A DNA stretch of 64,000 nt from Amoebophrya sp. A120 (lineage: Eukaryota > Protista > Dinoflagellata), in contig CAJINV010000004.1 in the NCBI GenBank assembly GCA_905178155.1, positions 5,744,828 to 5,808,827 of the forward strand. The letters run 5' to 3'. Shown in pieces: positions 16,102-45,300 of this stretch. The notes beneath the pieces were generated by a model. That model saw only the letters and a list, made by a program, of their open reading frames with translations. It searched no databases and was not told the DNA's origin. The position numbers and the translations under genes were made by a program. Every line of letters begins with the position of its first letter. Within the stretch, counting starts at the first letter, position 1.

Positions 16102-16207
16102 TTTGATTTTTGTTTTTCTTCGATTTCTCGACTTGGATGCGACAAGGAATAAAGAGGGTCGACGCCCCGTCGCCGTCCCACTCGTCCGTCGTAGATAGAG
16201 TTAAAAA

Positions 16208-22972: not shown

Positions 22973-25900
22973 TTATGAAGCAGAAGAAGAAGCCACTGGT
23001 TTCGGTTCGCCAGCCGCCACCGTTTGCCGGAAGCCGGGGTCAAAACGTATCCTGTGTAAAAACGTCCCCACCCCAGAGTTGTCATGCAAATCTGCATGCT
23101 CAAAATGTTTGTCATGCGGAGACACATGAGAAGCATTTTTTGGTCGTATTTTGGAATTTGTAATGCGCCAATCAGAATGATATACTAGATCTGTGATGCT
23201 GCTGAACTACCTCAAACAGCACTACGCTGCGATTCCAAATTTGTCATGCAAAACAGCCAAATTTCGTGGACTTGTCTAGCCGATTCCCCATCTTGACTCT
23301 GGTATGGGGATGCTTTTACTCAGGATAAAACGCGCCAGTTCCTCCTCCATGATTCGGATCTTCGATTCCAGCACCGGTTCGTCCTTTATGCGGGCCCTGT
23401 ACTTTTTCCTGGCGCACATCCAGAACGCCAAGATGCAGGCCTTGTCTTCCCGAACGTTGCTCATGCCGTAGCCGCACGCGAAGTCTTTGGGGGCTTTCCC
23501 CGCGTCGAAGCAGAGGCCGTGGTTGCTCTCCCGCGGATTCCGCTCGTACAGGTAGCGGAACTCGGGCGGGTGCAGGGCGCGCCACTCCGTGTCTTATGCA
23601 CTGCAAAAGTATCGTACTCGTAGTGATTGCAGTTATGCAGGATAAATACCTTTGCCAACCTGCATCAGCGTTACAAATGACACTTTTGCTCTTGCCAAAT
23701 AAAATTTGTAATGCAATTCCTACTAGTTCTTGTACAAGTACGATAATTTTGCAATGCATATGTCCTTCGGGTCGTTGATGTTGTTGTCGGCCTGGTTATG
23801 AAAGTGCACAACTCCCCCTCCCCCTCATTTCTATTGCATGAACAGGAATACAAGCGTCAGGGTCAGCAAGAATACAGGATTTGCATGACAAATTATTTGG
23901 ACAGGACTGTATCTCTATTTGGGCTGCCAAAACTTGTCATGCAAACAGTGCCAAGCGTCAAGGCCCTTAGTTAGGCACTTTGCATGACAAATGAGGGGGA
24001 GGGGGAGTTGTGCACTCTCATACTGGTCGATCAGGTGGTACAGCTCGTGAAAATATGCCATGCAAATACTTTCTATGTCTGCTGGGTAGGTTGGATGAAA
24101 GCACGCGATTGGTCACGCTGAGTTTTACGTAACAAAGCGGCCTTGTGCTAGTCGTGTAGGTCATGAACGCATAGAGTACAAGTTTTTCGGGAGCCGCCGT
24201 GACGATCGAATACGAATTCCACCGTCTTTTGCATGACAAAGACAGACTGCATGTTTATTCGAGCACGACAGAAAGACAGTCCCCAATGCTTTCATGCGTC
24301 ACAGATATCAACCGCCACATACAAAGCTCAACATCAGAAATCCAAACAGCCCCCCCACGGAAACACGGCAATATTTGCGACGCCTAGGTAAAACGTGTCC
24401 TTGTTTAGACAGTATCCGAAGGCAAGCCACATCTTGCGGCTGCCCGCCAATTATCCTGTGCGAAAGGATCGGACTCGTACTAATCGCATTCATGCATTAC
24501 AAATTTCCTTCTCAGGTTAAATCCGCATTAAAAATTTTCTTTCTTATGCTGAGGAAGTTTGTCATGCGATTTTTTTTTGCGATTTGTACTAGTACGATGC
24601 TTTTGCATTTGATACCAATCCGGCGCAGGGCCCGAAGGACTTCATCGCCAATTTGTTGGTCACGATAATTTGGTCCAGGACCTTTTTCTCGCGGAGGAAG
24701 GACAGGGGAAGCAGACGCACGATGTTCAACAAGGAATTCGGCTGCGTCGGGTCCAATAGTTCCTCGCACTGCGCCAACGTCAGCGGGTTGCCCGTGATGC
24801 CATGGGAGTTCCCGGGCACGTTTTCGTATGCAATGCAAAAGCATCGTACTCCTATTCGTACCAATTGCAGTCATGCATCACAAATATTTTTCCTAAGGTC
24901 AATAAGCATTACAAATTCCATTTTTCATGCTGAGGAAATTTGTGATGCAAGTCATACTAGTACCATACTTTTGCAGTGCATATTTCGAGCACGGTCGACG
25001 GGTCGTCTTCGCGATTGATGTGGAGCTCGATGCCAAACATCTCTTTTATGGAAAGATTCTCAAACCACTTACATTGACTACGTATTAGATTACAGATGAA
25101 TTTGTGACGCCTGATGTTGACTAGCAAAAGTGGAAGGGGGTGGAGGCTTGCACATCTTGCATATGAAGATGTGGCAAGATTTTCGATTACATTCAGCGCA
25201 TAAAAAACGAAAACTAGTCATGCGAACGCGAAGTGGCTTGATCGTTTGGAGGGCCACGCGAGGGTGATAGCGATTTTGCATGACAAATCATGTATATTTA
25301 TAGAGTGACTAATGTAAGAACGTTTGAGAGCGCCATATCTTCGAACTTCGCAATCCGGTCCATCGGCTCCATGGCCTTCACCTAAGTAAAGGAGGAGCAG
25401 TTTCTTTCATGAGGTTAAACCCATACCTGAATACTTACTTGAAAAATGACAATTGTGGACGAGAGACCTTAGTCTTAGTGCGAGTTCGTCCGATGGGAAA
25501 ATGACAAAGAAAAAAACAAAGAAAAACAACTAGAGCTACTTCTAATATCGCTATATAAATGCAATATATGGCACTTATACGTCGTCCAGCGGAATGTGCT
25601 GCGGGCCGGTGCCGTTTTTGGTTTCGTCGTTATGGAAGCGTCAGGATTGAAATTGACAAAGTTGAAATGATTTGTCATGCATAAAATGAATGCCAATTGG
25701 AACCCAGTTTCCAAGTGGCGCATGACAAATTTTGGTGGTCGTTAAATCCAGTTTGTCATGCTGTTTAGGCAAAGAAGACTGATTTTCTCATGCTACTTTA
25801 GCAGCTCGAGCTCTAACCCCAAACAGGCTCACAATCGGCCCCACTTGCCTGCTCTGCAACACACGTGCCTCGCGTCATGATGCATTTTCTGCATTACAAA

Positions 25901-28900
25901 TCATTTCAACTTTGACGATTTCAAAGCTGACGCTTCCATAGTCGTCATCCGAGTTGTATTCGTTCTCTCCGGAATCTATCAAATGTAAAAATGTCTGGGT
26001 CTGGAAGAATGCAACTTGTGATGCTGCGTTTGGATTCCAAAAAAATCTGTATTGCATGAGTACCAAAGGGAATGCTATTTTTGCTACGCTATCGCATCGC
26101 TTTGACATTTGACTCCTGTCAGGGTGGCGCTAGAACAGATTTAGCCTCTGCCAATACCGTGGCGTTAGAACAGATTTAGCCTCTGCCAATACCCCTAGGT
26201 GGACACCCGTTCCACGTCCTACAGGTACCACCCGACCGCATCCGCCGAACCGCTTGCGATTGCTTACGCATGAGTACGGCCAGTGGGCGCTAGATGTGGC
26301 TGACCTGATTTACCATCCAAGCCCTCGAGCAAGGTGGAGCCCCAGTGTTGCCTTGTTGGGTTATTCTTACAAACATTGAACGCTACAGCTTCTGTGGTCG
26401 GTTGCGCGCTAGGTATACAGGGGGTCTATTGGTCACACACGTTGACCCTATTACGATGACGGGCAACCCCAAAGCATGCCCCTTTCAAGCACTTTACCGA
26501 CCTGCATCCGCGCACCCTTTTTATGCGCATAGGTAGAATCGGACATTGAAGCTCCGCGTTAGCAGAGCCGCCACCGCGCCCGCCCCGGGGGGACCCCTTG
26601 GGGAAGGGGGGTGCTGCCTTAGCGCAGTCTTTAAATTAGCAACCCTGTTCCCACCTACTAGTAAAAGGGACGCGCTGACGACGACGGGATAGCAGTGCCG
26701 TGCCTATTGGCTGGCGAGGACGAGATGATTAGCAGCGCCGTGCCTTTCAGCTGGCGGAAACGGAGCCCTTGCAGGCTAGCTGATACGACCAAGGGAGCCA
26801 CTTTTTCTTTCTTTTTCTTTCCTCTGCTTCCTCTTCCCTCCGCCGACACCCAGAACACTGCTCCCCCATTTTTCGCCCTTCTGTTTCGTTCTCTTTCTTT
26901 CCTTTCATTATTTTCAACATCTCTTTCATCATCGTTTCTCAGTGCGTGTTCCTAAACATCTGGGCTAACTCTTCCTGTAATGAATTATCACGCTTCAGTC
27001 TTTTCATAGATCTCCTTTCTTCCTGCCGTTTGCGCTCCTCCTCCCGTTCTGCTGCCTCTTCGCGGTCCCGCTTCCGGTCCCTCTCGTTCAGCTCCTCCAG
27101 TGTTGGAAATCTTTCCTCTTCCTTTTTATCTTCTTTTTCCCCCACTGTTTCGCTTATGTCTTTGGCGATTTTCTTTCTCAGACTTCCTGATCTCCCCTCT
27201 CCGCCTGGTTCTTCTGCTTCTCGTGATGTCATTTCTATCTCCTCCTCCTCCTCTGCCACTTGGCGCACTTGCTGCGTGTTCTTCTCTTGTCGCGTCACAT
27301 CTCCTGCGACTTCTTTTTTCGCTGTTTTCTGTTCTTTCGAGATTTCCCTCTTAGGCAGTTTTCCTCCTGGCCCCCCTATCGTAATTTTTTGGATCATCTC
27401 CCGCGTTGCCTCCTCCGGTCCTTGATCCTTATAATATCCCATGCCAAAGCGCCCGAGTTTGTACACGTATCCTGAGCGGCTTCCCTGGTACTCCTGCGCC
27501 GGGGAGAAATACACAGCTTCTTCTATTTCGTTCTCTTCTTCTTCTTTTGATTCCTTTCGCTCTTCTGTTATTTCCGGCACGTCCCTCCTGTTGCTGCTGC
27601 TCGACGTCGCGCGAGATTCTAATGGACCGTCTACGGCTGTTTCTAGTAGGTCTGTGGCTCTTCCTATTATGTCCAGCGCCCTCTGCAGCATTTCGCTTCC
27701 TTCTTTCTGTGCTTTTATCTTTTCCCCTTCTACCATTTTTCTGATTGTTTCTGCTAATGACCCGCTGACTATCTCCCTGCTCGTGTCTGTCGTCGCAGTG
27801 TTCCCTTTGGGGCCTTTTTCGCAGCGAGCTTTCCCCTTCGCACTGCTACTTGCCCCCTTCCCCTTCCTCTCTCCTGTGCTGCCTTTCCTTCTGTCGTCCT
27901 CGCCGTTACCACCTCCCTCCTCCACTTTCTGCCCGTCTTTCTTTTCGTCTCCTATAATCTTCCGGCAGATGTACGCTTGTCTTTCTATTTTTGACATTTC
28001 CGGCCATTCCCAGATCGGTTTTGTCGGTGCATTTTTTTCGCCGAAATCGTACTGAACCCATTCAGCATATTCATCATCATGCTTCGACACGTTTGCCACC
28101 CTTAAGGGTATCACTTCTGTATAGCCCCCATGTGCTTCACTTTTTGCGAGGGTTTTTGGCGCGTTCTGCTTCCCCCAGCGCCTGACTATTGTTAAGCCCG
28201 GAATCTGTTCCTCTGCTTTTTCTATTTCCTCCTGCAGCTCTAACGCTATCCCTTGCTCTTTCCGCAGAAGCCCCCGCGTTTTCTCTTTCATCTCGTCGTA
28301 ATCCAGCAAGCACGCGCACACTCCTCCACTCCCTTCGTGTTGCTGTTTCTTCACCATCTCTATTGCTCTTATGGCGTTATTGCAATACGCTACGAATTTT
28401 CGCTCTTCTGTCCTAGCTTCTGTCTTTAGGTGGTCCTGCCTCGTTTCAATTGTTGCCATGTGTTCTTCTTTCCCCTTCCATTCCTCTACTGTTACCATCG
28501 TAGCTTCTTCTTTGTCCGTGTGTTTTACCCATATTTTCGTCATGTAGTCACTCTGCCCTTTCTTGCCTTTCCCCCCTTGTCTTATTTTGTCCGCAAGCAG
28601 ACTCCTGTCGCATCTGTACACGTGCTGGCTTTGTACCATCTGCGGTTTTGCTTTGTTAGTTTTTCTTACTATTCCTACCCCCCGCAGGTCGCTCCCCGCA
28701 GACAACCTCACCGATGCTCCGTCTCTGAGTGCTTGCAGTAGTGCTATGTCAGCTTCTATTCTCTTCATTATTTTTCTTTCCACAGCTCTTGCTATTCCTG
28801 CCTTCGATTCCCCCACTACTTTGAGTGGCATTGTTGCCATTTGGATGAAACCCCCCGGGTCTGTCAAGTAGTTTGCTTGGGCTGTTGCTCTTAGTGTTTT

Positions 28901-31900
28901 CAGCCCCAGCGTGAAAGGGTCTGTAATTCCTAGCATATTCGCCCCGAAAACTACGCGGTAGAAAGTTTCTGCATTTGTGTTCGTCTTTCTCATCAGTTCT
29001 TCCACCGTTTCCTCTGTCATCCCTATCGTCTCTGCTATTGTTAGCGATATTTCTCCTAGCATTGTCGCCCAGTCCTGCATGTCGAAATAGAGCTGCATCA
29101 CCGGTAGAAAGTATATCATCGACGACACAAAGAACACTTGGACTATCCACGCCAGCTCCTCCCCCTCTAGCTTTTTCCGTCTTGACATTACCTGGTAGGC
29201 CAGGTGCTGCCCTATTCCTATGCTCTGCTGAACTTGGCTCCTGAGAGCCTTGCGCTGTCCCTCCTTGTTCGTTGGCACTATCCTTATTCCTAAGATCTTC
29301 AGGAAGTCCTTCTCTTCGAACATTATTCCAAAAGGCTGGAAAGCCTGCCGCAGAATGCTGATTTTCGCAGGGTCTTTCAGCGACGTGGCAAATTCACACT
29401 TCAGGGGCGCCAGAAATTGCCCTTCTGTTTCATAGATTTTTTGGCACGCCCAGCTTGCTGCTCTCAATGCTGCCGCTACCACTTCTATATCTTCTACAAA
29501 AAACTTCAGGACAGTGGTCCCGTCGTCCACATATTGAACCGCTAGGGCCCATTTTCTCTTGTTGTCATGCGGGAGCTTTCCCATGTAGTGCCGAAATTCC
29601 GTCTTTCTTGCTTTTTCGCCCTTTTTCTCTTTCCCTTGCCCTGTTGTGACTTTTTCTCCTCTCCTATATCCCGTTACTGGTGGGCCGGCCTCCTTTTGGT
29701 ATATTTCGCCCACCTCCGTCCGGTGGTCGTAGTCCCGAAAACTTGTGTCTATGTCCCCTCCCTTGTATAGCCTTGCTATTCTCGCGCGCAGCTTAGCCTC
29801 TGCTTTCTGCAGTCTTTCTCTATTTGTTCTCCCTTCTTCATCAAAAACTTCTTCCAAGAATTCTGCTACAATTTCTACGCCCGGGAGAAACATCAGAGTC
29901 CCCCCGAGCATCGTCTCCACTGCGCCCTGGATGAGCTCTCTATGTCTGACTACGTGGCCGTAGCAATCCCCATTTCTTATCCATAGGTCTTTTGTCCACG
30001 CTGTTACTATTATCAGCTTTATAAAGCACGGGTCGCGGAGAGCCAGCCCCGGCGGGCGACTGCCTACATTCCCGCTATTTTTTGAACCGCCCAAGCCCTA
30101 GCCTGGGCGAGCAAGCCCGCCCCGGGCAATAGGCCGAGGCGGGCAACCCTTGCCGGGGACACAGGCGGGGCGCGGGCGACTTGCAGAACGCAGACGCCTG
30201 AGCCCATCGCCGAAGACCCGCCAGAAAGGCGCAGTGGCGAAGCAATTGCGCCGCCAACCCTTTCAGCCGTTCTTGACCACGTCCCGAAATTTTCTAAGTT
30301 TGCGCCTAAATTTCAGAGCAACGGCCGACATAGGCAAAATCGCACGCAAATTGCCCAACTGGGCAAATTAGACAAAAAATAGACAGCAGCCGAAGCGGCC
30401 AAGGCCGCTGCTTAGACAGAAATTAGAGGCGGCAAAGACCGCGAATATAGACAGGAAAATAGACAAAAAAATAGACAGGAAAATAGACAAGAAATTAGAC
30501 AAAAACTTAGACAAAAACTTAGACAGGAAATTAGACAAGAAATTAAACAAAAACTTAGACAAGAAATTAGCGCCCCCGCAAGAGCGCCGACTGTAGGAAA
30601 ATTAGCGCGAAAATAAAGAGCCTGGCGCCGGGGGCGGCTCTGTGCGACACGGGCGCAGCTTTGCTGTTCTGTATGCTTCTACTGCTCTCGGTATTCCAAT
30701 GCTGTTGAAGTAATTGGATGCATCTAGCCCGAACGCAATTGCTTCCTGCTTACTTCTTTCCTCTCCCTTTTTTTCTTGTGCTTCCTTCTGTTTCTCTACC
30801 CCACCGCCTTCGTGGCATGTCTGTAATACCTGTAGCGCTGTCGCTTGGCAGCTAGCCCCTGGCTTTGACGCCGATCCACACCTTGTAAACGCATCACTTT
30901 TGTCGGCTACGCGCGCCATTTCGAAGACTACCACGCTGAGCAGCACTCGCATGATCGCTGTCCCCTGTATCACCGTCCGGATTTTTTCTATTGCCGTCGT
31001 TGCTGCTGTCTGCTTTTTCAACAGTTCTACCTGCACCGCGTTCAGGTGCTCTTCCAGCAACGCCGGCTGATTTTTCTTTGCGCTTTGCTTCATTTCGAAT
31101 TCCTCTCCCTCTTTTAAGAATCTATTAAACACCTCCGCCAGGATCTCATATTGCTCCGGCGTGAGTGCTTTATAAATTTCCATCCTGAGGCCGTCCATAC
31201 CGGCGGCCTCAGGATTGAGTCTTTTTACGTGTTCCTTTAACTGTGGGCCGGTAAAGCGTAGGCTTTTGACCTCCCTGCATGCTTGCGTTAGCTGCCCCAG
31301 TGCTTTCGCTAGCTCCTTTGCGTCATAGGTGTGCTTCTTTCCGTTCTCCTTCCTCGTGGGTTCACACTTTAGCAGGTGGCTGCTAGCGATCCTCTCCGTC
31401 GCTGCCTCTACCCCTTTCACTAGTATTCCGCCTACTGTCACTTCTTTTGCCTCTCCCATTGGCATTCCCCTTCCTACTCCACATATCGCTTCTTTTACTT
31501 TTCTTGCTGTTTCGTATATTTCCTTTTCCGTCTTTTGCCCCTTTTTTGGCATTTGCGGAAATGACTGCGCCCACTCCTTTTCGGCTGTCTCCGCCTTTTC
31601 TTTTTCCTCTTCGCCTTGCTCTCCTTCTTCTTGCTTTATGTTTTTCTCTTCTTTCCGCTTCTCTCTATTTTGCTTCTGCCATTGAGCCTTAAGCTTCCCT
31701 CCCTTTTCTACTTTTTGCACCTTGAGGACCCCCGCCTCGTTCAGTTTGTCCATGAGCCATTTCTGTACTCCCAGCATTGTTCTCCGCTCTGTTGGTATTG
31801 TCCCTGCTTTTTCCATCGTCTCCTGAAGCCTTTCTAGTGTTATCGATTTCCGCGGCCACTTCGCCACCTGTCTCACCGGGTTGGCTTTTTGGAATTTTCT

Positions 31901-34900
31901 CATCCCCCTGATTATTTCTATTCTCCCTTTTGCGCTTTCCACCGTCGGCGCCACGAGTGAGCGCCGTGCGTTGAAGGCCCATCGCTTCTGTTCTTTCGCT
32001 TGCTTTTCTTTTTGCACTTCCCCTATGCACTTCGGGGGCGGTATCCATACCACGTCTGCAAGTAGAGCTACGTGGTCCGACTCCTCCTCCTGATTTTCAT
32101 CTTGTTCCTGATTCTGATCCTCGTCCTGTTTTACCTCTTGCGGTATCTGCACCCTCTCGCAAACTTTCGCCACCACCCTGCCCTTTTTTCCTGCTATTGC
32201 CATGAAGTCAATCGTAGTTGGGTTTTCTTGGCTGCGGTAGCATGTTGGCCCTCCTGTTGGCAGTGTCTCCGCATGCTTGTTCAGCATGTTTTCTAATGGC
32301 TTTATCACCTCCTCGAAATAAATCTTCTGCGCCCCTGTTTTTTCTCTTTCAAGTTTTATCTTTCCTCTTTCTTCTATTGCGTACTGACAGTTCAGGCCTC
32401 CCGTCATTATTGCCATTCCGCATTCTTCTATCATTTTTTCGAGCTTTGCGGTCATTTCTGCCATTTGCTTGCGAATAAACATCGCCTCTTCGCTGTCTTT
32501 TATGGGTGCGTCCTTTGCTGGCCTGCGGTAGAAGACCACGACCAGCATTCCTCTTTCGTCTTGCGCTGCTACCATCCATAGCAAAGCGTCCTCTTTATTG
32601 GTTATGCCTTTCCGCAGGAATGTCCCTCCCATATCTTTCCGAAGTATCTCCGCGCTATATATACTGTCAGGCAGCCTCTTTGGCTCTTCTATGTATATCA
32701 CCCCCACTGCCCCCGCATTGAGTTCCGCGGCCACTTTTTTCATATTTGTCGCCGCCGCAAAGTACACTGCCGGTCTCGTGTCTGGAATCCCCAACGCCTT
32801 CCGTTCCTCTTCAACGTGTTGGAAAGCTGCTTGCTCGTCTGTTAGCGCTGCTACTTTGAGCTCTGCGCAGCTGGCTCCTGTTAGCCTTGGCGTTATCTTT
32901 GTGTTTGCTTTTAGCAGACGTAGCGCATTTCGCCGCTTTACTCCATTTATGTTCCAGAAAGGGTGGCGCTCCCGCCTCATTTCTTCGCTTCCGTCTTCTC
33001 TTTCTTTTTTCTCATCTAGTTCGTCTCCTTCCTGCTCGTCTGCTCCCTCCTCTTCTGTTATTTCTCTCTCGTCTTCGCTTTTTTCTTCTCTATCTCCTCC
33101 CAGTCCGTTTCCTTCTTTTTCTTCTTTTTTGTTTCTTCTGTTACTGTTTTCCTGCCACCCTCTTCTTTCTTCATTTCTTGTCCCGCTCGACTCCTCTTCT
33201 TCTCGTGGCAGTAGCGTCTCCTCCTTCGCGATCTTCATGCCCTCCATTTTTGCCATTCTGTCTTATTTCTTCTATTCTCAGTTAGGCTGCCTACTAACTT
33301 ATATAATTAGTTACTCGCTACCGCTTTCATTGGGTTAGTCCTTCTAAGCGTAGCGCTCTGCTCTACTTACCTTCTACACTCTATATCTATCTACAAACTC
33401 TCTCGCTAGTCGAAGTCACTCTATCACGTCTACTAAGCTTTCCAGTCTTCCTTCTATGGTCGCTGTGGGTGTTTTTTGGCAATTTAGATTCTTCCGCTCG
33501 CGATCTGTCGAACGCTTTTTCGTTTGGAGATCAGTCTTTCTTTGTTCTTCAGTATTTTATAGCGTTAGGCTCTCCTTTCTTTTTATGTCTGCCTCTGTAT
33601 AGCGGAGCTGCTGTTATCATTCCTTCTGTCCCTCATTCTGCCGCCTCGTTCTATTCTGCCGCTGACTCTGCTTCCGAGTTGCTTCCTTCCCTTTTTTCTT
33701 TTCTTTTTTCTTTCTTTTTTCCCAAACGCTCCGCCCTTTGTGCTCTGCTTTCATTTTTTCGCGTTTCCTTCATCCTTTTCGTTTGAGCTTCTGCTGCTCT
33801 TTGTATTCTCTTCTTTTCGTGTTCCATTCTCTCCGTCCGCGAGAGCTCGACCAAGGCCGCGCTTCCTTTATACGATTTCGTCGCTATCAACTCTCTTGCT
33901 CTTTCTTGCCATCTGGCATATTCCTCATCGGATTCGAGCGCTGTAGCTAGGCGCTTTCGCGCATTTTTTGATGTTGTATTCTTTGCGTCTTTTATTTCTT
34001 GGCTCTTCTTCTCTTCTTTCCTTTTCTTTTTTTTCTTCTTTTCCTTTTCTCGCCATCTTCTCATATAGTCTCCGATGTGTATTTTCCACTGTATCCGGGA
34101 CATTCTCCGGAGGCGGACGATTCCGAGCGCTCTTTTCTTGTCCCTTTCATCCTCCACTTCCGCATTCGTCTCTTCGTCTTTTGTTGCTGCTGTGAAAAGC
34201 GCCCGCATCTTCTCCGCCCCTGCTTTCAGTCTCATCGCTTTCGCCATCTGCTGTCTCTGCTTTATTGTCAGCAGTTTACCCTCCGCATCCCTTTCAGGCG
34301 TTCTTCGCAGCCATTTAGTCATTGGCGTCTTCCTTTTTCTCCTTACTGCTGCTAAGTTTTTCAGTATCCGCGCGCTCATTTTCCCGCGCTTTTTATTGAT
34401 TTCCGCGATCGTCGTATCCGGCCTCGCGCGCGCCGTCACCTCCGTTTCCTTTCCTCGTTGGCTTATCAGCTCGTCTATCAGCATGCCGCCCCGCTCTTGC
34501 CGATCCTCTTCTTGGCTTTTTCTCTGTATCTCCAGAGCGTCCTTTCTCTTTTCATTTATTAGTGCCTCTAGCCAGTCCTCTGCTCTCCCGTCTTTCGTTG
34601 TGTTCGTTTTCTCTTCGTTCTGCGCCTCTTTCTTTTGTTTCTTCTCTCCTTCTATATTTGTCTTCGGCGGCGGCCTGAAACGCAGCGGGGCGATCTCCAT
34701 TTTGGATCTTTCTTCGTTTTGTTACAGCTCTCGGTCGCTACTATACTTCCGGTTCTATGCTAAAGATTTGGATCGTCAGCAATTTTCTAAATTTTTTCAC
34801 CTCCTTCTGCTTCCTGATTTTTCAACTCATTGCATTTAGAAGGTTTGCCCTGATCTTTTCGCTGCTGCCTGTTTTTCTGTTCCTGAGACACAACTATCTA

Positions 34901-37900
34901 ACGCATCTACCCCTTCCGTGAAGTAATGCGCCTGCCTACACGTTGTTTCATTTTCATGCATGCAAAGCCCACCACTGTTCCCGTTCATTCCTCTCCGTTC
35001 AACCACTGTATTTTGGGTGAGCCATAAAAAAGCCTCTTCATATTCCAAAAATGGTTCTCTGCTTGCTCTAACCCATTTGTCTAAGTTATTTTCGTCTCTG
35101 TTCTTCCCTTCGTCCGACTAGTCAGAGTCGTACTGCGGCTAACCCTGAGTGTAAAACTAAAGTCTAAATCTTCTCAAAACTAGTGCCTAGTAAGTGTCTC
35201 CGCCTCGTTTCTATCTCGCTTATGTCTGTCTTCTCCTTCCAGTCTCCTTCGGTATATCCCGTCGCTCATCCGCTATCCGCTCCTCGTTTGCCTGCTAGTA
35301 TTCGCCTCCGTTCATGCCCCACTGCATCCCGCTCCCGTGGTCCTGGTCTCCGTACCCTCCGTCACCTGTTCCTTTGCCGGTGATCTGCCAACTTTTTTCT
35401 TTTCCCCAGCCCCATCCCCCTTTTCCTCCTGCTTTGCCGTAGGGCATGCTTCTTTTTCCGCCTTTCGTGTGCCAGTGCTCCGCCCCTTCTTTTCCTCCGT
35501 ACGGGCCCGACTTGGGACCGAACATTGGGGGGGGGTAGTGAAACCATTCCGCGTCCCATCCATTCCCTTTTTTCATCTGTTCTTTCCCGTAATATCCCTG
35601 ATCGTTTTTCCCGGTACCCTCTCCCGCCAGTCCTTCGCTTCCGGCTGTATGGTCCGCCCCGGTTTCCTCGTCGTGCTCCTGATCCATCTGCGATTCCTCC
35701 TTCACTCTAGTTGCGGGGTGGGCTCCATTTCCTGTTTCGTTTTTCTCTTCTTTCTCGTCTTCCCCTTTCCCTCCTTCCTGTTGGTAGTAGAAGGCTTCGC
35801 CTTTTCCATCTTTGTTCTTCGCGAGACCTTTCCCGTAGCCTCCCCCTTTATCCGCTTCCCAGCCGTGGCAAAACTCTCCTCCCATCTTGTATTCGCAGTG
35901 CCCTTCACTTTCATTTTGGTAGTGGTACGCTTCTCCGCCCATGCCGGGGTAGTGTCCGTAGCCCGTTTCTTCGGGCCAGTAGTAGCCTTTTCCTTTTTTT
36001 CCGCTCTGGATCTGGTTCGACGTTCCCCAGTATCCCATCCCCCCTTTCCCTGCTTCTTTCTCCCATTCGATCGCCTTTTTCATTTCATTGCTCGGGCGGA
36101 GGTATTGGTCTTCTTTCCACTCCGTCACTTTTCCCGTCCCGATTTGTTTTTCATCGATCTGCTCTCCGGTGTCGCGGAACTCCTCGAACAAGTCGGCCAT
36201 AAGGGCGCCGTCCCCTTGGAGCATCAAAGTGCCGCTACTCCAGAACCTCACGATAGCCCGCTTTTCCATCCACAGCGCCGCAGCTGTTTTGTCGCATCCT
36301 TCTCGCGAATGCATTTGGATCGTATCCGGGTCCTGGTCCGTCAGCTGACCCAAGAACTCCATCAACTGTTCCGCTTCAATGTTTGCAAATTTTGCGTGAT
36401 TTTCTTTGTCGCGGCATGGGCCGGCCGTCGACTTCTTCTTACGTCCCCTCCCCATTTTCCTTCAATTTTTTTCGTTTCTTCTTTCTTCCCCCCTTCCTTC
36501 ACAGCCTCTACTACCTATCACTTGCGCTTTCTTCAGAAAGAATATAATGTCAACTATTGATACTCTTTATTCTAGTTGCGTGGCTATCGATAAACAAAGA
36601 ATGGCCCAAGGCTTCGCTCCAGCTCTATTCTTCTCAAAAAAAAAGATTCTGCCCTTTGTTGTCGCTGTTCGTCCTTTTTATTTATCATTGGGGGCATTTG
36701 CAAGAATTATTTCCGTCATTTCGCTATCTCTATCATTCTCTTTCGTCTTTTCTTGTTGTCGATCTTTCCGCTCATGCAAACGCCGATCGTTTATTGCAAT
36801 TCCATGCTCCTCGGTTTATCTTACCGCACCCCATCACCCGATGTCCTTCCTACCTAGAAGTACGGACGCGGCCTGCCGCGACGGCAGAGCACCCTTGAAG
36901 CGTGGGCAGAGCGTGCGCGCTGGTTTCCAAGGCTGAAACACAGAAGCGCTGTGCGCGGGGACAGGAAGGCAGGGGCAAAAAAGGGCGCAAGCAAGTTGTG
37001 TTCCGAGGCGCAGGTGGGGGCATGGTCCGCCGCCACATGCCAAGGCAGAGGAAAGGCACATTTGTCCGCGGGAGGACAGAGAAAGACGCAGCACGCAACA
37101 GGGTTGCGCAGCGCGATGGACATCTTGGCTTGGGTGCGCTCCTTGCTCGTTGCAAGGTTATTTCGATCCTCTTATTTTTTGCTGCCGCTGCTAGGATTTC
37201 TTGCTTCGCTTGTGATCCTTTTTGCATTTCGTTTCATCTGGGACCTGTCGCGAGGGAAGCGTTACTCTTACTCATTTTGATCCTTCGTCCCCGGCTTCAT
37301 ACTCGTCCTCGTGTGAAAAGTTTCGGCTCTCCTGGCTCAGCATCCTCGCCTTGTATTTTCAGGCACTGGCAGTTTTTTCTGCTTCGACTTCTTCTGCATC
37401 TCCTTATTTTTCATTTTTTCATCCTCAAAACACAACAACAAAAATAATTCAGTCTCTTATTCCCTCTTGTCCATACTTCGGCTCCTGAATTCAGATAATT
37501 AAGCTGCGAATTCTCGACGTCATGGGAGCTCTCACCTTCCCATTTGTTTTCATATTTCTTTATCCATGCCGTGCTTGCTTTTCGTGCTGCTGCCTCACTT
37601 GGTAGCGAAACAACAGCACTACTTTGCTGGCCTCGGAGGGAAATGCTTTTCGCTTCTTCGTATCTTCCATCTATTTTCGTTATGGGTAACGTCGGTCCGA
37701 ATTTGCGGTAGTGTCAAGCCCTTCGTGGTGAAGACGCGGCTGCTCCGCGCTGCAGTCCGTCTTGTACATATTTACCCTTCAGCTAACTTCTATTTTTTGC
37801 ACTAGCTTCCGTCTCTTCTTTATCCGCGTTTTGTGCCGACTGCTAGTGTACATCTTTTTTTTTTTTTTTTTTTTTTTTATATATATCCCTTTTTTTTTTT

Positions 37901-40754
37901 TTTGCACTGCGCCGACCGCGCCCGGTCGTGGCTAGAGCTTTTTCTGTTAAAATTATGTATAAAAAGAAACTCGTCGTCGGCTACAACGAAAATAGGTGCT
38001 ATGTCTATTTCTCTATCGTTGCCGCGGTCGGTATGCTACTGCCCCTCAGCATGAGTACGCAGCAGCACACCTTTTCAGCTCGCACGGTGATGATAGTCCT
38101 GCTTTTCTTTATGTGTAGTAGCTTCGGATTTACCTTGTAAAATCGAACTTTTTCTTCCTTCTTCTCTTTTTTATCTAATATCTTTGTTGCTTCCGACGTA
38201 GCTTATAGCTTGCTTTCGCATGCTGCTATCCCGTTGGTGCAATTTCAAATCATACACTTTGCGATAAATATTGCCTTCGATATTAACCCGGAGAGTCCAT
38301 TTCTCGCTCATCGATGTAGCGCGACCACTCTTCTTCTCGATCTTCTTCTTTCGTGGTTCCAACCGTATCAGGTCGGTGCAGATTAGCCTCTTCATAGTTG
38401 GTTCTATGCGTTCTGCTGTCTTAATGGGTTGACAGTAGGTCGATCAATATCGTGACTTGCAGGAGAGGACTGTCGAACGACCTCTCTATTTCTCTTTTCG
38501 AAAAGAAAAATACTTAGAGGGCCCCCGTCGCTGTTTCGTCTTTCCATCTATCCGTGTAGCTTGCTCAACCGCTTATGATGGTGTTGGCAGTGTGCCCCTC
38601 AACCGCTCGTAAAACAAAAAATAAAACAAATAGCACTTTCTTCTTTTTCTTCACAGATGTAAACCATTTTTATTTTCCAGACTGCACGGCTACTATCTTG
38701 TGTAGCGATAAAAGTTGAGTCGTGCGGCGAGAAAAATGCTGGATGTGCTCCGGGAAGAAGCCTCGCCATCTACAGCATAACTCATGCGCAGCTTCCTCTT
38801 CTTTTTCGTACGAGTAGTGTACTCCGTCTGTTCTATCTCTTTTTCGAATTTGATACACATCAAAACAAAACCTCCCGTCATCTCTGAAGAAACTAAAAGA
38901 GCCGCTGTCTTAGTCGTCGCGCTCGCGCCATCTACAGCACTTTTCTCCTCTGCTTTGCTACGCTGATAAGGCATTTGTCATGCGGAATAGGCATCAAGAA
39001 GCTCTCAAAAAATCTGTGATGCTAGGGCATGCATCACAGACATCAGGGATCATGCAAAACGTGCATGACAAGTGTCAGAATCTTCCAGACCCAGACATTT
39101 TTACATTTGATAGAATCCGCGGGCGCCCCGGTGCAGAGCTGCATGTCGCGGAGCCCCTGGATTTTCTTGTTGGGCGCCCCGAGGACCAGACGCTTCCAGT
39201 CGAATACCGTCTTGATGCGGGGCAGCTCCTTGTCTTCCGCCCCGGGGCTGGGTCCGGTCAGCACCGACTGCAAAAACCCGTCGGGCAGTTTCAGCTCGTA
39301 CTCCAAATCCGCCGCCCACGCGCAGGCGTCGGCCTGAACATCGTAGCCTTTGAATCCTTGTTCCGCGGAGTCTTTGGCCACGTAGGGGTAGTACCGGACG
39401 TAAAGCGTGTATCGCAAGAAAAAACTGATTCACCGTGCACATGTGAAGATGTTGCGGAGGATACAACAACAACGAAATAAAGTGCTTGTCTTCCTACGCA
39501 TGCAAGACCGCCAAAGATTGGTAGCTCTGTTAATATCCTTAGATAGCTCGCCTTCTTCAAGCAAAATTGTACTTGTGTCGCAACAATACCCTTGCAAATA
39601 AGTAAATCATCACAGTTGTGAACCACTTTTCCCCTACGATAGCATCAGCAAGCAGGCTTTTAGCAGCATCATGTACTTTTCGACCTCTTTATGAAAGTGC
39701 ACAACTCCCCCTCCCCCTCATTTGTAATGCAAAATACCTAATTTACGCATTGGCTCTAAGGACTGTTGGCATCACAAGTTCTGGCAGCCCAAATAACACC
39801 ACACTCCTGTCCAAATTTATCACGCAAAACCCGTATTGGGTATTCTTGCTGATGCTGACGCTTGTATTGCTGTTCATGCAATACAAACGAGGGGGAGGGG
39901 GAGTTGTGCACTGTCATACTCTTTGATGTTCAAGCCGCCCGACTGATCTTTGTCGCACAGTTGGATCAGGAAGGGTCCGAGCGTTTTCTTCTGGCCGCAG
40001 TAGAAGAGAAAGTCGTTCATTTCTTCCTCCTATCAGATGCAAATGTGTCTGGGTCTGGAAGAATGCAAGTTTGTCATGCTTGTCTCGCATGACTCTGGAA
40101 TCTGTCATGCATGAGCAGGAAAGCAGCCTCTTACCTGTCGTGCAAAGACGCAGTTTGTCAAGCAGGAAGCGAAACACGTAGGAGCTCAGAAACTTGTCAT
40201 GCGTGGCTGCGACGTAACGCAGTGCGCCCGCCATGCACGAACTAGCATCACAAGATTCCAGACCCAGACATATTTTCAGTTCATACCTCCCCCTTGATCT
40301 CGCTGCTCTTGTCCTTGTCCACCATCATGAAAGCCTCCTGCAACTCGCCCTGTTCCCAGGGCTCCAGGGCGACGCCCTTTCGGTCCAGGATCAGCTTCTT
40401 CAACACTTTTTCCGCGTCGGGTAGGTCCCGCTGCCCGCCGGATCTGTCACGCGCCCAAGTTTTCCACCCAGTCAGGTTCTGAGAGCTGGAGTTCAGCGAC
40501 TGCGGGTGGTCGAGCAAAGTCTGGAGCTGTTCGAGCTCCGCATCAGTTAATTTGCCGTCCAAGTTAGAATCGAACGTGTTGAACAGCGCGGCTAAGTACT
40601 CGTCGTTCTGCTCCGATTTGCCCTGTTCCGACACCTCCGGCAGTTTCTGCGGGGGCACAACGCGCTTGGAGGAAGAGGAACTGGCGAAACACAAGGAAAA
40701 ACACTTGCCGGCCGCGGCTTCGCCGGCGTTGTCCAAAATATCGCACGGGTTCAT
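22973..40754 (-). CDS. EF-hand + HExxH zinc-metallopeptidase-like fusion protein, highly fragmented gene spanning 17.8 kb
   Basis: Three EF-hand loops (DSNLDGKLTDAE, DKDKSSEIKGEE, DKDQSGGLNIKE), then FHELYHLID...DTEWRALHPPEFRY...YGMSNVREDKAC. Eleven introners and GT-AG intron 25382-25580 join in frame. One further intron between ~24070 and ~24420 is unresolved. Confidence 0.75.
23048..23327. mobile_element. Introner family E (280 bp)
   Basis: TATCCTG(T/A)GTAAAA ends. Direct repeat AAACG. Confidence 0.9.
23595..23760. mobile_element. Introner family A (166 bp)
   Basis: TATGCA.TGCAAAA.TATCGTACT ends. Repeat TGTCT/TGTCC (4/5). Confidence 0.88.
23797..24022. mobile_element. Introner family D (226 bp)
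   Basis: TIR TATGA(A/G)AGTGCACAACTCCCCCTCCCCCTCATTT. Direct repeat CTGGT. Confidence 0.92.
24452..24614. mobile_element. Introner family A (163 bp), opposite orientation to most copies
   Basis: The TATCCTG end is on the left. Direct repeat CCAAT. Confidence 0.88.
24827..24982. mobile_element. Introner family A (156 bp)
   Basis: TATGCA.TGCAAAAG ends. Direct repeat TTTCG. Confidence 0.9.
25047..25337. mobile_element. Introner, divergent family (291 bp)
   Basis: TATGG...TCTCAAAC...CTTACATT inverted ends. Repeat TCTTT/TCTTC. Removal gives KFE|EMFGIEL. Confidence 0.75.
25631..25940. mobile_element. Introner family C (310 bp)
   Basis: ~50-bp TIR TATGGAAGCGTCAG..TTGAAAT.G.CAAAGTTGAAATGATTTGT.ATGCA. 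Direct repeat GTCGT. Confidence 0.92.
26124..26193. repeat. 35-bp tandem duplication near the retroelement 3' end
   Basis: GTGGCG(C/T)TAGAACAGATTTAGCCTCTGCCAATACC x2. Confidence 0.9.
26939..33256 (-). CDS. Retroelement ORF2: apurinic endonuclease - reverse transcriptase - degenerate RNase H-like region (~1898 aa after removing the 621-nt insertion)
   Basis: APE motifs WNING, FYRRP, GGLN (expected GDxN), TIDF and SDH. RT motifs AAGMDG, LDASNYFNSI, LIQG, YVDD and LKILG. The two ORF halves (30602-33256 and 26939-30094) are in the same frame and join as KLRPC|FIKLII. Confidence 0.88.
30033..30647. mobile_element. 615-bp TIR element inserted in the RT coding sequence
   Basis: ~22-bp imperfect TIR TCGC..AGAGCC..CCCCGGCG. 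Direct repeat CACGGG at 30027-30032 and 30648-30653. Internal 12-bp repeat array. Confidence 0.85.
30365..30605. repeat. 12-bp-period minisatellite (TTAGACAA(A/G)AAA-like) inside the TIR element
   Basis: Tandem units such as AAATTAGACAAG, AACTTAGACAAA and AAATAGACAGGA. Confidence 0.85.
33651..34700 (-). CDS. Retroelement accessory ORF, 349 aa, basic/charged, probably coiled-coil
   Basis: Intact ORF upstream of ORF2 on the same strand. K/R/E-rich. No recognisable domain. Confidence 0.65.
   Translation of the reverse strand: MEIAPLRFRPPPKTNIEGEKKQKKEAQNEEKTNTTKDGRAEDWLEALINEKRKDALEIQRKSQEEDRQERGGMLIDELISQRGKETEVTARARPDTTIAEINKKRGKMSARILKNLAAVRRKRKTPMTKWLRRTPERDAEGKLLTIKQRQQMAKAMRLKAGAEKMRALFTAATKDEETNAEVEDERDKKRALGIVRLRRMSRIQWKIHIGDYMRRWREKEKKKKKKRKEEKKSQEIKDAKNTTSKNARKRLATALESDEEYARWQERARELIATKSYKGSAALVELSRTERMEHEKKRIQRAAEAQTKRMKETRKNESRAQRAERLGKKKEKRKEKREGSNSEAESAAE
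35295..36455 (-). CDS. Retroelement ORF1-like protein, 386 aa: small N-terminal fold plus Gly/Lys/aromatic-rich low-complexity tail
   Basis: IVRFWSSGTLMLQG resembles the TBP-like/RNase HIII-N-terminal hairpin motif. The rest is G/K/Y/W-rich and disordered. Confidence 0.65.
   Translation of the reverse strand: MGRGRKKKSTAGPCRDKENHAKFANIEAEQLMEFLGQLTDQDPDTIQMHSREGCDKTAAALWMEKRAIVRFWSSGTLMLQGDGALMADLFEEFRDTGEQIDEKQIGTGKVTEWKEDQYLRPSNEMKKAIEWEKEAGKGGMGYWGTSNQIQSGKKGKGYYWPEETGYGHYPGMGGEAYHYQNESEGHCEYKMGGEFCHGWEADKGGGYGKGLAKNKDGKGEAFYYQQEGGKGEDEKEEKNETGNGAHPATRVKEESQMDQEHDEETGADHTAGSEGLAGEGTGKNDQGYYGKEQMKKGNGWDAEWFHYPPPMFGPKSGPYGGKEGAEHWHTKGGKRSMPYGKAGGKGGWGWGKEKSWQITGKGTGDGGYGDQDHGSGMQWGMNGGEY
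39410..39641. mobile_element. Introner, family F-like, degenerate (232 bp)
   Basis: TATCG.A...AAAA.TG.TTCAC ends. Repeat GCGTG/GCATC (3/5). Removal gives LM|LYVRYYP. Confidence 0.7.
39690..39918. mobile_element. Introner family D (229 bp)
   Basis: TATGA.AGTGCACAACTCCCCCTCCCCCTC ends. Direct repeat CTCTT. Confidence 0.92.
40031..40285. mobile_element. Introner family B (255 bp)
   Basis: TGTCTGGGTCTGGAA TIR. Direct repeat CCTCC. Confidence 0.9.
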
Positions 40755-41214
40755 GGTATAAATAACTCAAGGTTGATGAGTTTATTATTCAGTGTGTTTT
40801 TTAACTAGGTAGGAAATTTATGTTCGGGTGATTATGCGTATGAATCCTCGACGTAAAAATTGCTTCTACAAATTAGAAAGTTACACGACGATTAATATTT
40901 GACAAAATTCTTATCTTCGTCGGTTGCGCTTGCGCATTCGCGTACGCGTTGCGTTGCTTGCGATGTATGACTGAAAGGTCATTGCAGCACTTAGTGCGGT
41001 TTTCTTTACATAGTGATGAACCAGAATAAATTTACAAACTTGAAACTGCCACAACGATTGCAGGTGGTTGTATAGCTTGTTATCCTGCACTGTGCGGTGG
41101 TACAGGCAAAAATACAACTCCGCATAGAAGATGAAAACCGATAGTACCAGCAAGGCCTCAAGAAGAGGTGCACGACCGTCAAGAACGGTTTCACTAGAGA
41201 TGTAGGCACTGCTT

Positions 41215-41314
41215 CACTATCACTATCACTATCACTATCACTATCACTATCACTATCACTATCACTATCACTATCACTATCACTATCACTATCACTATCA
41301 CTATCACTATCACT
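41215..41314. repeat. (CACTAT)16 microsatellite
   Basis: Perfect intergenic hexamer run. Confidence 0.95.
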
Positions 41315-42300
41315 TCTTCTGTGCGGGGCAAGAAATAAACCGATCCTCTATGTTAAAGTGCACCATCTTCATCTGTGTGGTCTGTTCCGAGCAGAACCGA
41401 TAGAACAAGCTGTAGTAGAGGACATGACGACCAGACCGAGAGGACAAAAGAAAACCGAGAAGTAACTTGGAAATCTTGATCTACAAGCGAACCTGTCGAC
41501 GTCCAAAGCGTGAAAATATAATCCCAGCCGGGTTCCAATATTTATCTTCATCTGGAAAAATGTTGCAGTATTACCGACAGCGATGAAAGATCTCTCACCT
41601 GTTGGCGGATGAACCGACTGTCGCTTTGCAACTAGCATTTCTAATATGACGCACCACTCAACATGTGTCGCAGAAGCCGTAGCAGAACCGAGACCGACGT
41701 GAATTTATAGAACAGGGGATACTCATACTTCTCACCTGGTCGTCCTTTTGTGTAACTGTCGAGCATCATCGTTGGTCTCTTGTTGTACAATAAAATGCCA
41801 TTTATTGTACCGATAGTGAAACCACCAATCGCGAAGCCCTGACTCAGTGCGCGTTTCTTTACACAGCGACAATCGAGATGAGTCTTCGCATACTCTGTGG
41901 CTCCAAGAAACAACACTCGTGCGTTTTTCTCTTCAGCAGCGCTATCATGACTTTTCGATTCACAGCACCGCTTTTTCAGTTCATTCATACTCAACAGCAC
42001 GTGGAGCAAAATTTCTAGAAATAAAGCCACTCTAATTAGATTCATTTTTACTTCCTGCGTTAAGCCACTGTAGTTGTGCGGTGGCCTTGTTGGTATACTT
42101 GTAGCGATCATGATTCGCACCAAACGCAGCCACTCTAGTACTGCTCCGCGTCCGCCGGCCATCAAAATATCAAAATCAGATCGCAAGTTGTGCTGTCTTG
42201 TTCTCGCGACCTGGCATGTGCGCAAAGAACAGGGAGAAGAACCACATGTGCTGGCGGGTTGCTGCTGCACCTGCAGTAGCAGAAGTTCTTCATCTTCCAG

Positions 42301-45300
42301 TTAAACGAAGATCGGTGTAGCTTCGTCGGGTGCCGGTTCTTCGAGTCCTTCTCTAATATTATTCCGCCCATCTTCTACAACATGCGCCCGAGTAGACAAA
42401 GCCTCCTGATCTAATATTTCTTCCAGCGGGTTTTCCAGCGTGACTGAATCCAGCAGGTCAAACGTCACATTCGCCGTCCCGATCTGCGCTAACGGCAAGC
42501 CCCAGAAATCCGCGCGGAGGGATTTGCGTCCCTTGACGAACAGGCGGAGGTAGCCGAACGTCAAAAAGCGCTTGGCCGACCAGTTTTGCACCACCTGATC
42601 CTTGTTCGTGTCCAGCCACGCCCCGGCGCTGCCAATCGTAATGTGGGTGGTAGCGAGAAACTTGTTCTTCTTCTCTTCCTGCTTGCCGATAACCTCGACC
42701 CTTGTGTGGTTGAACACCGGCCACGTGCGCTCGTACTCGTGGTAGTGACCGGCCAGGAAGAGGCTCACCCGGTACTTTTTCAGGAGCGGGTCCAGCGCGT
42801 CGGCGAGGTGCGAGCCCACAATGTAGTCCGGCATGAATTTGGAAGAGTCGTAGGCCGGTCGATGGGAGGTGATTATGATCCAGGGGAAGTTCTGCCTTAG
42901 TCTGCTCGTCGTGGTGGATGAGGCTCTTGTGCGACGATCTGCTTCTGATGTGACAACGCCAACAGTTTCCTCTTCATGATGTTGTTCCCCCACCCCACGG
43001 GCCTTCTTCAAATCCTGCTCCAGCCACTGGTACTGGACGGACCCGGGCGTGTAGTCGTGCTCTGAACTGATTTGGATAACGTGCACGTTGGTCATGTCGA
43101 AGCTGTACCAAAAAATGCCGTTTCCCGTCGGCGGCGGGTTCGGGAACCGGTGCACGACCGGAACGGCGCATTCGCCCTTGGAGTCGTTGTTATGGATTGC
43201 AAATATGTTTGGGTCTGGAAGTAGAGTGGAACTTGTAATGCTGTCTGCGGATTCTAAAAATATCTGTGTAGTTGCATGAGCAACAAGAGGACTCGGCTCT
43301 TGGCACGCGGAATGGGCGTTTTTCATGCGTAATTAGCATCAAGAGGCTCTCCAAAAATCTGTGTTGCTAGCACCAGCATCACAGACCTCACGGGTCATGC
43401 AAAATGTGCATGAATAGCCTCGACCCTTCCAGACCCAGACATTTTTGCAGTTGATAGTCGTGGTAGTCGCCCCAGTCCGGGTGGAACCCGAAATCCCGAT
43501 GCTTGTCCGTCCCACGACCGTCGCAGGGGAAATTGAAACTTTCCCCCTTGTTCGGGGTCACCAAACTGGGGTCCTTGCGTATCCCACGAAAAAAGTGCTT
43601 ACAGTTACACCTTTGTAGTCAATGTAGCAACACAAATTTCTCTGCATATGAGTGAAAACTTGTAACGCAGAAATCCTACGGGAAATCACCTATGAAACGA
43701 GGCTCCCATGCATACCCGGGATGACAGTGACAGAGCTCGTCTGTCTTGCTTGGCCTGCAACACAATGTGGAACTGTAACACATTTTTCTTGCGATATTGC
43801 GGCAGTCCGCCCCGGCGGAGAAGTAATCGTACTCGTGGTTTCCGTATGAACTGCAAAAGTATCGCACTCGTATAAATGCATTACAAATTTCCTCAGCATG
43901 AGAACTGCTGTTTTACCTTGAGGACAAGATTTGTAATGCATAAAAGCAATTAGTACGAGTACGATACTTTTGCACAGGATATCCCGATGGACACCATGTA
44001 CGGCATGCGCGCGGCAATGGTGGTCTGGATCTGCGTCTGCCACAGCTTATTCTCTGCAAAAATATCGCACTCGTAGCCGTACTAATTGCAGACACGCATG
44101 ACAAATCGCCTTCCTAAGCGGAAACAGCATTACAAATGCTCTCTGTCATGCTAAGCTAATTTTTTGTAATGCACTTCATACTACTAGCACGATACTTTTG
44201 CAATGCATACAGCTCCCAAATGTAGCCCACCGACCAGGCATAGGCCAGATCGCCGAAGTGCAGCGCGAGACGGGGTGGCGGTGGTTGTGGTCGTGCTGGT
44301 CCTCTCGCTGATGTGCTGGACGATTGTGTTGCTGCAACCACTGCCGTCTTTACAAGTTGTAGTTCCTCGCTAGTGACGACGCCTTGGTTGTTCTTGCTCC
44401 TCTGCAAGCGGTTCGCTCGGTGCTGGCGCTCTTCCTGGCGCAGCAGCAGCAAGGGTGAAACTGACGAAGTGTGCTGTTCTTTTTCTTTTAGGACCACATC
44501 GTATTGCGCCATCAAGTTTCTCAGGTTGATGTTGACCGCGTCCGCCCCGGGCGTGTGCGTGCCCCGTTCGTCGAAGCCCGCTGCCGCGTTGTCGTGATAC
44601 AAACTACCCCATTCCGCCCCGTGGTCTGCGTAGGCCAGGAAGTTCCACTCCGCATCCGGGTCTGGCTGCAGCGGCGTCGTATCAACTGTAAAAGTGTCTG
44701 GGTCTGTGTCTGAACGCCACTCAGACAGGCTCGATAGACGACATGATCATTGGTTGATCGTTGAGAACTCACGATGTGACTACGGTCGAAGTGTAGTACA
44801 CGAGTGAGAACTCGCGATGTGACTAGAACTCACGATGTGTAGTTCTTGCTCTTACCGTAGGTGTAGCACAAGTCGGCCTCTTCGCAGTAGTTGTAGTCGC
44901 TATTCGCATTAGAAGATGCAGAAGTAGAGCTGTTCTTATCGAGAGCATCCTTGATTTGGGATTGGACGTCCTCGATGGTGACAAAAACAGAGCCTGGCTT
45001 GCTTTCGTCCTTGTCTTTTCCAGATTCCGTTTTGTCCCAGTCAACAAGCTCTTTCTCGATTTCTTGCCAGGTCTTCGGTGGTTTTGTTCGTAACCTGCTG
45101 ACTACGGGATCGAAGCACCTCGGCATTCCACCGAGGAGCACTGCTCTCATGCGAGATTCCATAATCGGTCCTTCCGGGCAGGTTTCGGGTAACAAGCGAG
45201 CAAGACGGAACTTCTCTGCTACCCACGCCTCGAGACCCATTTTCTTCGGGTCCCAATTTTCCTGCGTGAGTCTTTGTTCCGTCGTGGTCTTGTCGTACTC

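Follow-up and report, generated by a model that had tools for sequence, protein, structure and literature searches.

The stretch of DNA analysed here (the window) comprises 64,000 nucleotides of the dinoflagellate Amoebophrya sp. A120 (GCA_905178155.1, contig CAJINV010000004.1, positions 5,744,828 to 5,808,827), and all coordinates below are positions within it. Its central part holds a gene on the minus strand that is interrupted at codon 304 of 581 by a giant intron. The intron is formed by a single TAT...ATA introner of 13,136 bp (25977-39112), into which a retroelement has been inserted, and the retroelement is in turn interrupted by a small element with terminal inverted repeats (TIRs), giving three nesting levels: introner, retroelement and 615-bp TIR element. 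The parts of the locus are listed below (LTR, long terminal repeat; RT, reverse transcriptase; ORF, open reading frame).

22973-40754, minus: host gene, 14 exons, 581-aa EF-hand protein (CAD7946012.1 / GSA120T00000941001)
25941-25971, minus: host exon of 31 nt, directly downstream of the giant intron
25972-25976, unstranded: GAATC, the copy of the 5-bp direct repeat that lies downstream in transcript sense and is lost with the intron
25977-26090, minus: introner arm, 3' in transcript sense; TIR at 25977-26008; ends in the duplication 26080-26090
26091-38953, minus: non-LTR retroelement insert, 12,863 bp, sharing the strand of the host gene, sense strand 65% purine, without terminal repeats
26124-26193, minus: 35-bp tandem dimer that lies 33 bp short of the insert's 3' end, which has no poly(A)
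26939-30032, minus: C-terminal part of the pol frame with the later RT motifs (YVDD codons start at 29533), thumb-like helices and a long tail
30033-30647, unstranded: nested TIR element of 615 bp that interrupts the RT; internal 12-bp tandem array
30654-33256, minus: N-terminal part of the pol frame with an AP-type (apurinic/apyrimidinic) endonuclease and the first RT motifs
33651-34700, minus: 349-codon basic, charged insert ORF, no family assigned
35295-36455, minus: 386-codon Gly-rich insert ORF, no family assigned
36456-38953, minus: 2.5-kb 5' region with no sense frame above 130 codons and two A-runs (14 and 24 nt)
38954-39112, minus: second copy of the 11-bp duplication (38954-38964) and 5' introner arm in transcript sense; TIR at 39081-39112
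39113-39403, minus: host exon upstream of the giant intron, including the retained 5-bp repeat 39113-39117

This non-canonical intron of 13.1 kb is precisely removed from host transcripts. Four of 13 listed sequencing runs were placed on positions 23000-41100, namely two of RNA type (X3 and X6), one of DNA type (X1) and one of raw RNA with the same species label (X11), the last of which is uninformative with only 4 reads on the whole stretch. A joint from 25971 to 39113, skipping 13,141 bases, occurs in two of the four runs, X3 (depth 179.1) and X6 (depth 6.37), and is not among the rows listed for the DNA-type run. In X3 a contig of 1,846 nt (depth 179.1) passes unbroken through this joint and its neighbours. 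The first-pass annotation had predicted the junction and reasoned that, if the gene is expressed, a non-canonical process must pair ends 13 kb apart; the joint was looked for in the RNA-type runs and found, and since the gene is transcribed and the intron removed precisely, both ends must be brought together across 13 kb. None of the six possible splice registers is GT..AG and one is AT..AG, so that removal from mRNA at non-GT-AG ends, as described for A120 introners, is seen in both RNA-type runs; among 11 host joints examined, 3 have a GT..AG register. The data are able to reveal retention, since a 338-nt intron of the same gene (24049-24386) is represented in X3 by a spliced contig (depth 186.9) and a retained-form contig (depth 43.1), and no retained form of the giant intron is among the contigs listed. 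Exons of only 26-31 nt (25941-25971, 24023-24048 and 23761-23791) are precisely included in the mRNA between non-canonical introns. Another joint in X3, from 23628 to 24483, joins repeated introner arms and was read as a sister-copy artefact.

Exons taken from the RNA joints (two inferred from contig spacing) give an open frame of 581 codons that is identical, at 581 of 581 residues, to the public Amoebophrya sp. A120 protein (GSA120T00000941001), and the public annotation therefore already spans the giant intron. The earlier impression of an apparently intact gene whose exons join in frame thus holds; retention of the intron would yield a predicted product of 326 aa. An end of the gene 27 codons past the giant intron was considered and rejected, as that stop falls in a GT..AG intron. 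A search for orthologs with the host protein returned one match among 132 candidates, which was the protein itself, and a scan of JGI metagenomes with the host exons gave a single locus that was rejected, having a 31-residue match only and no DNA similarity.

Sequence comparison of the two ends confirms what the first-pass annotation had described, a TIR (25977-26008 and 39081-39112) that is perfect over exactly 32 bp and an intact GAATC direct repeat on both flanks (25972-25976 and 39113-39117). The insert of 12,863 bp (26091-38953) is bounded by an 11-bp direct repeat (26080-26090 and 38954-38964), and a match of 11 bp between the two 81-bp junction zones arose in none of 1000 shuffles. It occupies the variable central spacer of the introner, both arms being left whole. 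Removal of the insert and one copy of the 11-bp repeat leaves an empty form of 262 bp, which aligns end to end with copies of its family, best with the emptied copy at 44680 (83%), at 73-76% with those at 18823, 43191 and 61854 and at 61-63% with the other three. Insert, target duplication and empty length are as had been claimed, and the ordinary copies include two of 262 bp. A loose end found in two runs, leading from 26089 into right-arm sequence with the 8-base spacing of the empty form, is attributed to a sister copy.

Introners of A120 have been described as carrying a TIR that starts with TAT, seven variable bases and AAA, and direct repeats of 3-5 nt (Farhat et al. 2021, PMC7789003). 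The giant introner shows this signature at its ends, has GAATC at both exon borders and belongs to a repeated family with 8 copies with recognisable ends in the window. It resembles the published elements in its TAT-type inverted repeats, short direct repeats, family membership and removal from mRNA, but differs in its length of 13,136 bp and in holding a retroelement with three ORFs and, nested as well, a second TIR element (PMC7789003); a short non-coding interior is found only in the 262-bp empty form, the long form containing a coding insert. Non-canonical introns of A120 average 240 nt in that study, which analysed only introns of 40-1000 bp, and the longest A120 intron in its table measures 35,152 bp. 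More than 60% of Amoebophrya introns are without GT-AG ends, and the mechanism of their removal is described there as an open question (PMC7789003).

Five ordinary copies of the family measure 255, 262, 262, 266 and 268 bp. Three of the eight copies with recognisable ends are enlarged, the giant introner and the following two:

44680-47085: family copy in a purple acid phosphatase gene, 2,406 bp long, holding a 2,133-bp TG...CA insert (44707-46839)
7773-9053: family copy of 1,281 bp, 1,006 bp of which are an insert flanked by 17-bp direct repeats (7871-7887 and 8894-8910)

In the 2,406-bp copy, the insert lies inside the TIR, 26 bases from the end of the copy, and is flanked by a 5-bp duplication. 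A direct repeat of 86 bp occurs within it, as does an ORF of 514 codons that has no Pfam match and that we take to be gag-like by resemblance; the insert probably represents a deleted LTR element. In the public phosphatase model, the sequence is joined in frame across this copy, and a related Amoebophrya protein is contiguous there, the case being drawn from gene model and ortholog, not from reads. For the 1,281-bp copy, the empty form would be 258 bp and matches the copy at 40031 at 76%; from the sequence alone, its flanks would join in an open frame. Judging by these copies, an insert-bearing introner is not a one-off in this family. TIRs match at 23-29 of 32 positions in the ordinary copies and at 25 of 32 in both other enlarged copies, and as the latter are imperfect, the perfect TIR of the giant introner may reflect youth rather than selection. 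An automated catalogue of introners (28 pairings, reduced to 25 elements by dropping 3 cross-pairings) contains no enlarged element among the 17 of other families (Fisher p 0.024, post hoc), a figure for family enrichment that is soft, since several elements of normal size but diverged sequence escaped the catalogue, among them a likely ninth copy of the family near 55575-55830.

The insert appears to be a divergent element of the long interspersed nuclear element (LINE) type, with an endonuclease of the apurinic/apyrimidinic endonuclease (APE) type, an RT and relatives in other Amoebophrya. Comparison of the insert with itself gave no terminal repeat, neither LTR nor TIR, and its 11-bp target duplication is of the variable-length kind found with LINEs. 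Endonuclease and RT motifs, under the names that we take to apply to them, stand in LINE order in the pol frame, and VDD and the flanking RT motifs are conserved in all four aligned rows. In the ESM Atlas the first pol piece had a top match of 0.94, with Exo_endo_phos clusters, and RVT_1 clusters at 0.90-0.94; the second piece gave RVT_1 clusters at 0.84-0.85, a lead only. A HMMER scan with the second piece returned 31 matches, three of which cover the RT region, all of them from Amoebophrya AT5.2 / A25; the other 28 were set aside, as they cover only a short motif near residues 815-933. Residue 846 of one AT5.2 homolog (P0001) marks the changeover between the two pol pieces: the alignment with the first (E 4e-25) ends there and that with the second (E 4e-34) begins there. 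The endonuclease of P0001 matches Pfam PF03372 at E 4e-4, below the cut-off, with GDFN where the window frame has GGLN.

Against the RT call stands the lack of sequence matches in Pfam and PDB: Pfam gave only sub-threshold chance matches for four insert frames, and PDB sequence searches with insert frames returned nothing below E 0.04. The predicted pol folds are of low confidence (pLDDT, predicted local distance difference test, 38.7 and 48.6), and Foldseek with these models found no match. With a low-confidence fold, VIA placed LINE-1 ORF2p at rank 19 (Z 5.5, root-mean-square deviation 3.8, 98 aligned) among unrelated helical rows, and a word-index search with the first pol piece gave 0 matches among 7,987 candidates. 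The insert shares with APE-type non-LTR retrotransposons an endonuclease followed by RT in one frame, upstream ORFs, a variable target duplication, the lack of terminal repeats and a purine-rich sense strand. Unlike them, it is too divergent for sequence matches in Pfam or PDB, has two upstream ORFs, an interrupted RT and RT-region relatives only in AT5.2 and A25, and carries no poly(A) at its 3' end, where the 35-bp dimer is seen instead, 33 bp from the end. The 386-codon Gly-rich frame is possibly ORF1, and the 2.5-kb 5' region may be a long 5' untranslated region or co-inserted sequence. Summed X1 depth, which gives no copy number, is 72-184 over 26624-30851 and 18-41 over 30852-38703; this gradient, together with variant letters, fits further 5'-truncated LINE copies. 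The short aromatic/Gly motif in the pol tail (27400-27520, minus) is common to 28 otherwise unrelated proteins, often in tandem, and no Pfam family covers it in the seven proteins scanned.

The inner element pairs at 18 of 22 terminal bases and is flanked by the 6-bp direct repeat CACGGG (30027-30032 and 30648-30653). Its TCGC...GCGA ends and 6-bp repeat are unlike the TAT...ATA, 5-bp pattern, and it offers no GT..AG register. A DNA contig of X1 (contig 3) starts exactly at 30033 with a depth of 158.7 and 13 differences in 364, as expected of a multi-copy element; TIR, target duplication and multiple copies make the element similar to miniature inverted-repeat transposable elements. RNA contig cover over it is almost nil. 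Without the element and one copy of its repeat, pol is an open frame of 1,900 codons; with it, a stop follows after 886 codons, and the break lies where the P0001 alignment switches pieces (residue 846). The uninterrupted pol frame of an autonomous LINE copy is thus not present here. A whole retrotransposon had been proposed for this locus, which is right as regards a large retroelement insert but not in the coding sense, because the 615-bp element splits the RT frame.

These observations could be explained by the following course of events. An introner of about 262 bp would first have inserted into codon 304 with a 5-bp duplication, a LINE would then have entered its variable central spacer and produced the 11-bp duplication, target-primed reverse transcription being the likely route, and the small TIR element would later have entered the RT, likely leaving a copy unable to move on its own. 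One long pre-mRNA would be cis-spliced, with the paired ends marking the cut and the interior ignored, and the passenger would be passive, its RNA being degraded. We consider this reading, a single introner with a LINE split by a TIR element, removed whole by splicing that is likely set by TIR pairing, to be probably correct. Pairing of the two 32-nt ends is predicted at -52.4 kcal/mol, against -23.0 for the strongest competitor within the insert; by extrapolation, a loop of 200 nt costs 9.7 kcal/mol and one of 13,070 nt only 14.3. Hairpin-guided joining has been proposed for Amoebophrya introns, and U1 was not detected (PMC7789003); Euglena knock-ins support a role of terminal inverted repeats (PMC12501133). 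An intron 50 times the family size that is still removed to the base amounts to a natural experiment on Amoebophrya splicing, by which the interior would be irrelevant and the signal would lie at the ends. The 2.4-kb sister with its insert 26 bp from the end narrows the needed signal further. Likely, then, this unexplained splicing reads only the paired ends of an intron and so shelters passengers inside genes. The surprise is limited, because transposons in introns are ordinary and long A120 introns are already annotated.

Several points weigh against this reading. Pairing is a putative splice signal, and the 5' arm can also pair with the upstream family copy (-44.1 kcal/mol versus -54.8 with its own partner, over 40 nt). 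The RNA evidence consists of assembled contigs from two samples of one study, not raw reads; X3 and X6 were assigned as RNA only by guess, yet introns are skipped precisely in them. The joints and pieces considered are those listed from the mapping, and 282 further joints lie outside that list. Finally, as the ordinary copies match at only 23-29 of 32 positions, a protein could read the shared ends instead. This leads to the main rival, unlikely in our estimate, which keeps the same anatomy and cis-splicing but has the ends recognised by sequence-specific proteins or a modified spliceosome, with TIR pairing a leftover of transposition. TAT...ATA and a conserved subterminal sequence are common to all A120-type ends in the window, one register of the giant intron is AT..AG, and some elements of the same gene have predicted 25-nt end duplexes of as little as -14.9 kcal/mol; A120 has almost the full set of spliceosome proteins (PMC7789003). 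However, at least four unrelated TIR families stand at precise RNA joints in the host gene, the property they share being self-complementarity, and most joints offer no single terminal dinucleotide pair of the GT..AG kind.

We give a low chance to the explanation that the spliced RNA came from cells with the empty 262-bp allele, or that the 13-kb locus is misassembled, the long allele being unspliced in either case. An empty allele would give an identical joint, the RNA and DNA runs are from different samples, and among the DNA pieces listed none bridges the left junction or spans the locus, which tells against the reading preferred here as well. Relative to the window, one X1 contig (contig 4, 31132-36425) has 15 differing letters and 4 gaps, and it stops close to where the first ORF starts; the differences may reflect a near-identical second copy or an assembly mosaic. 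However, the right junction is bridged by another X1 contig (contig 5, 36398-38997) with 0 differences and a depth of 20.7, within the range of four flanking unique X1 contigs (20.6-33.8). The exact 11-bp duplication restores the family length, two stacked insertions would argue against a very recent event in culture, and scaffolds of the published A120 assembly were checked for chimeric joins with Nanopore reads (PMC7789003); these three points together make an artefact unlikely.

Comparably improbable is a bolder extension of end pairing, in which TIR pairing alone would define A120 introns, the roughly 30,000 introners would form a length-blind, splice-proof landing field within genes that is sought by retroelements, with this family foremost, and the excised intron, perhaps circular as in euglenids, would double as retroelement RNA, with the inner TIR element removed likewise. 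If this were true, the published 'retrotransposon-derived' A120 introners would largely be passengers.

The first-pass annotation had further suggested that the introner acts as both shelter and expression vehicle. Its first half stands, as the open 581-codon gene and the precise removal support the introner sheltering the retroelement within the gene, and its second half does not, insert depth reaching at most 1.27 against 179 in the host. RNA contigs of X3 cover 3 of 19 depth bins in the insert (highest 1.27, host 179.1) and those of X6 cover 1 of 19 (0.14, host 6.37); contigs are no proof of absence, and excised intron RNA may escape libraries of this kind. Even an excised full-length RNA would have its pol translation end after 886 codons unless the inner element were also removed, and such removal was not seen. 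The vehicle reading is thus unsupported rather than refuted, given the near-absence of insert RNA in the contigs and this stop. In its fullest form, the excised intron would be sense, full-length retroelement RNA that is translated or serves as template, with the inner element spliced out or pol supplied in trans, and this we hold to be very improbable. Insert and host gene do share a strand, the other insert frames are open, the inner element has a TIR and direct repeat whose clean removal restores the pol frame, and DNA depth falls from 72-184 in the 3' part of the insert to 18-41 in its 5' part, as would be expected from additional 5'-truncated copies. Against it, beside the near-zero RNA contig depth, the TCGC...GCGA ends, 6-bp repeat and missing GT..AG register of the inner element do not resemble the introner pattern, and Rfam gave 0 matches to ribozymes or other families at E<=1. 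An excised intron also carries neither cap nor poly(A) tail.

Least credible, and highly improbable, is separate transcription of the two halves (a stop near the A-runs and a restart in the LINE) with joining in trans through the paired TIRs, comparable to the base-paired split introns of Giardia. In its favour, a perfect duplex of 32 bp is stable enough to hold two molecules together, A-runs of 14 and 24 nt are located some 1.2 kb inside the intron, and most of the insert is uncovered by RNA contigs. However, intron RNA should be missing wherever splicing is efficient, the near-identical TIRs elsewhere, hundreds of them (3,258 X1 contigs at >=99% on the stretch), would invite wrong partners, and there is no promoter evidence. 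Stepwise removal of the insert as an intron of its own was rejected, as 0 of its 12 registers are GT..AG and it has no TIR; lacking splice ends of its own, it is likelier to be removed in one piece with the introner. The same features separate the locus from twintrons and stwintrons, which it resembles in that one intervening sequence is nested in another.

A120 introner families that show homology to retroelements could also be read more simply, with the retroelements as nested passengers rather than founders. In PMC12130899, where 41 of 58 A120 rows of Dataset file 8 were covered, fam6 is a 234-bp TIR element with a LINE/RTE-BovB match and an end coordinate of 7,165, fam21 a 305-bp TIR element with an end coordinate of 13,919, and fam3 has RT and integrase domains, an end at 16,115 and a non-LTR classification; several short TIR families have retroelement matches and end coordinates of 4-16 kb. 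That study attributes some A120 introners to retrotransposons or an unknown hybrid mechanism, and the word 'nested' is absent from its main text and from the 12 supplements searched. The retroelement of the giant introner differs from these families in being a passenger with its own target duplication. We infer that families with retroelement matches (PMC12130899) may hold nested passengers too, as such nesting would yield ends at 4-16 kb. The literature consulted, mainly open-access, describes neither this locus nor any nesting of retroelements within Amoebophrya introners. Nonconventional introns of euglenids, as described in PMC12501133, are alike in having non-GT-AG ends joined by terminal inverted repeats and in tolerating small changes of their central length (5 bp in the tests there). 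They differ in belonging to an unrelated lineage with reported circular excision and in a CAG/CTG at fixed spacing, which the ends of the giant introner, TATCAAATG...CATTTGATA, do not show (PMC12501133).

Two other features of the window are of a different kind. A GC-rich element at 57677-58127 has 82-bp inverted arms at 91% and internal palindromes and is unlike the TAT...ATA families, and a (TCACTA)n microsatellite of about 110 bp lies between two genes at 41202-41333.

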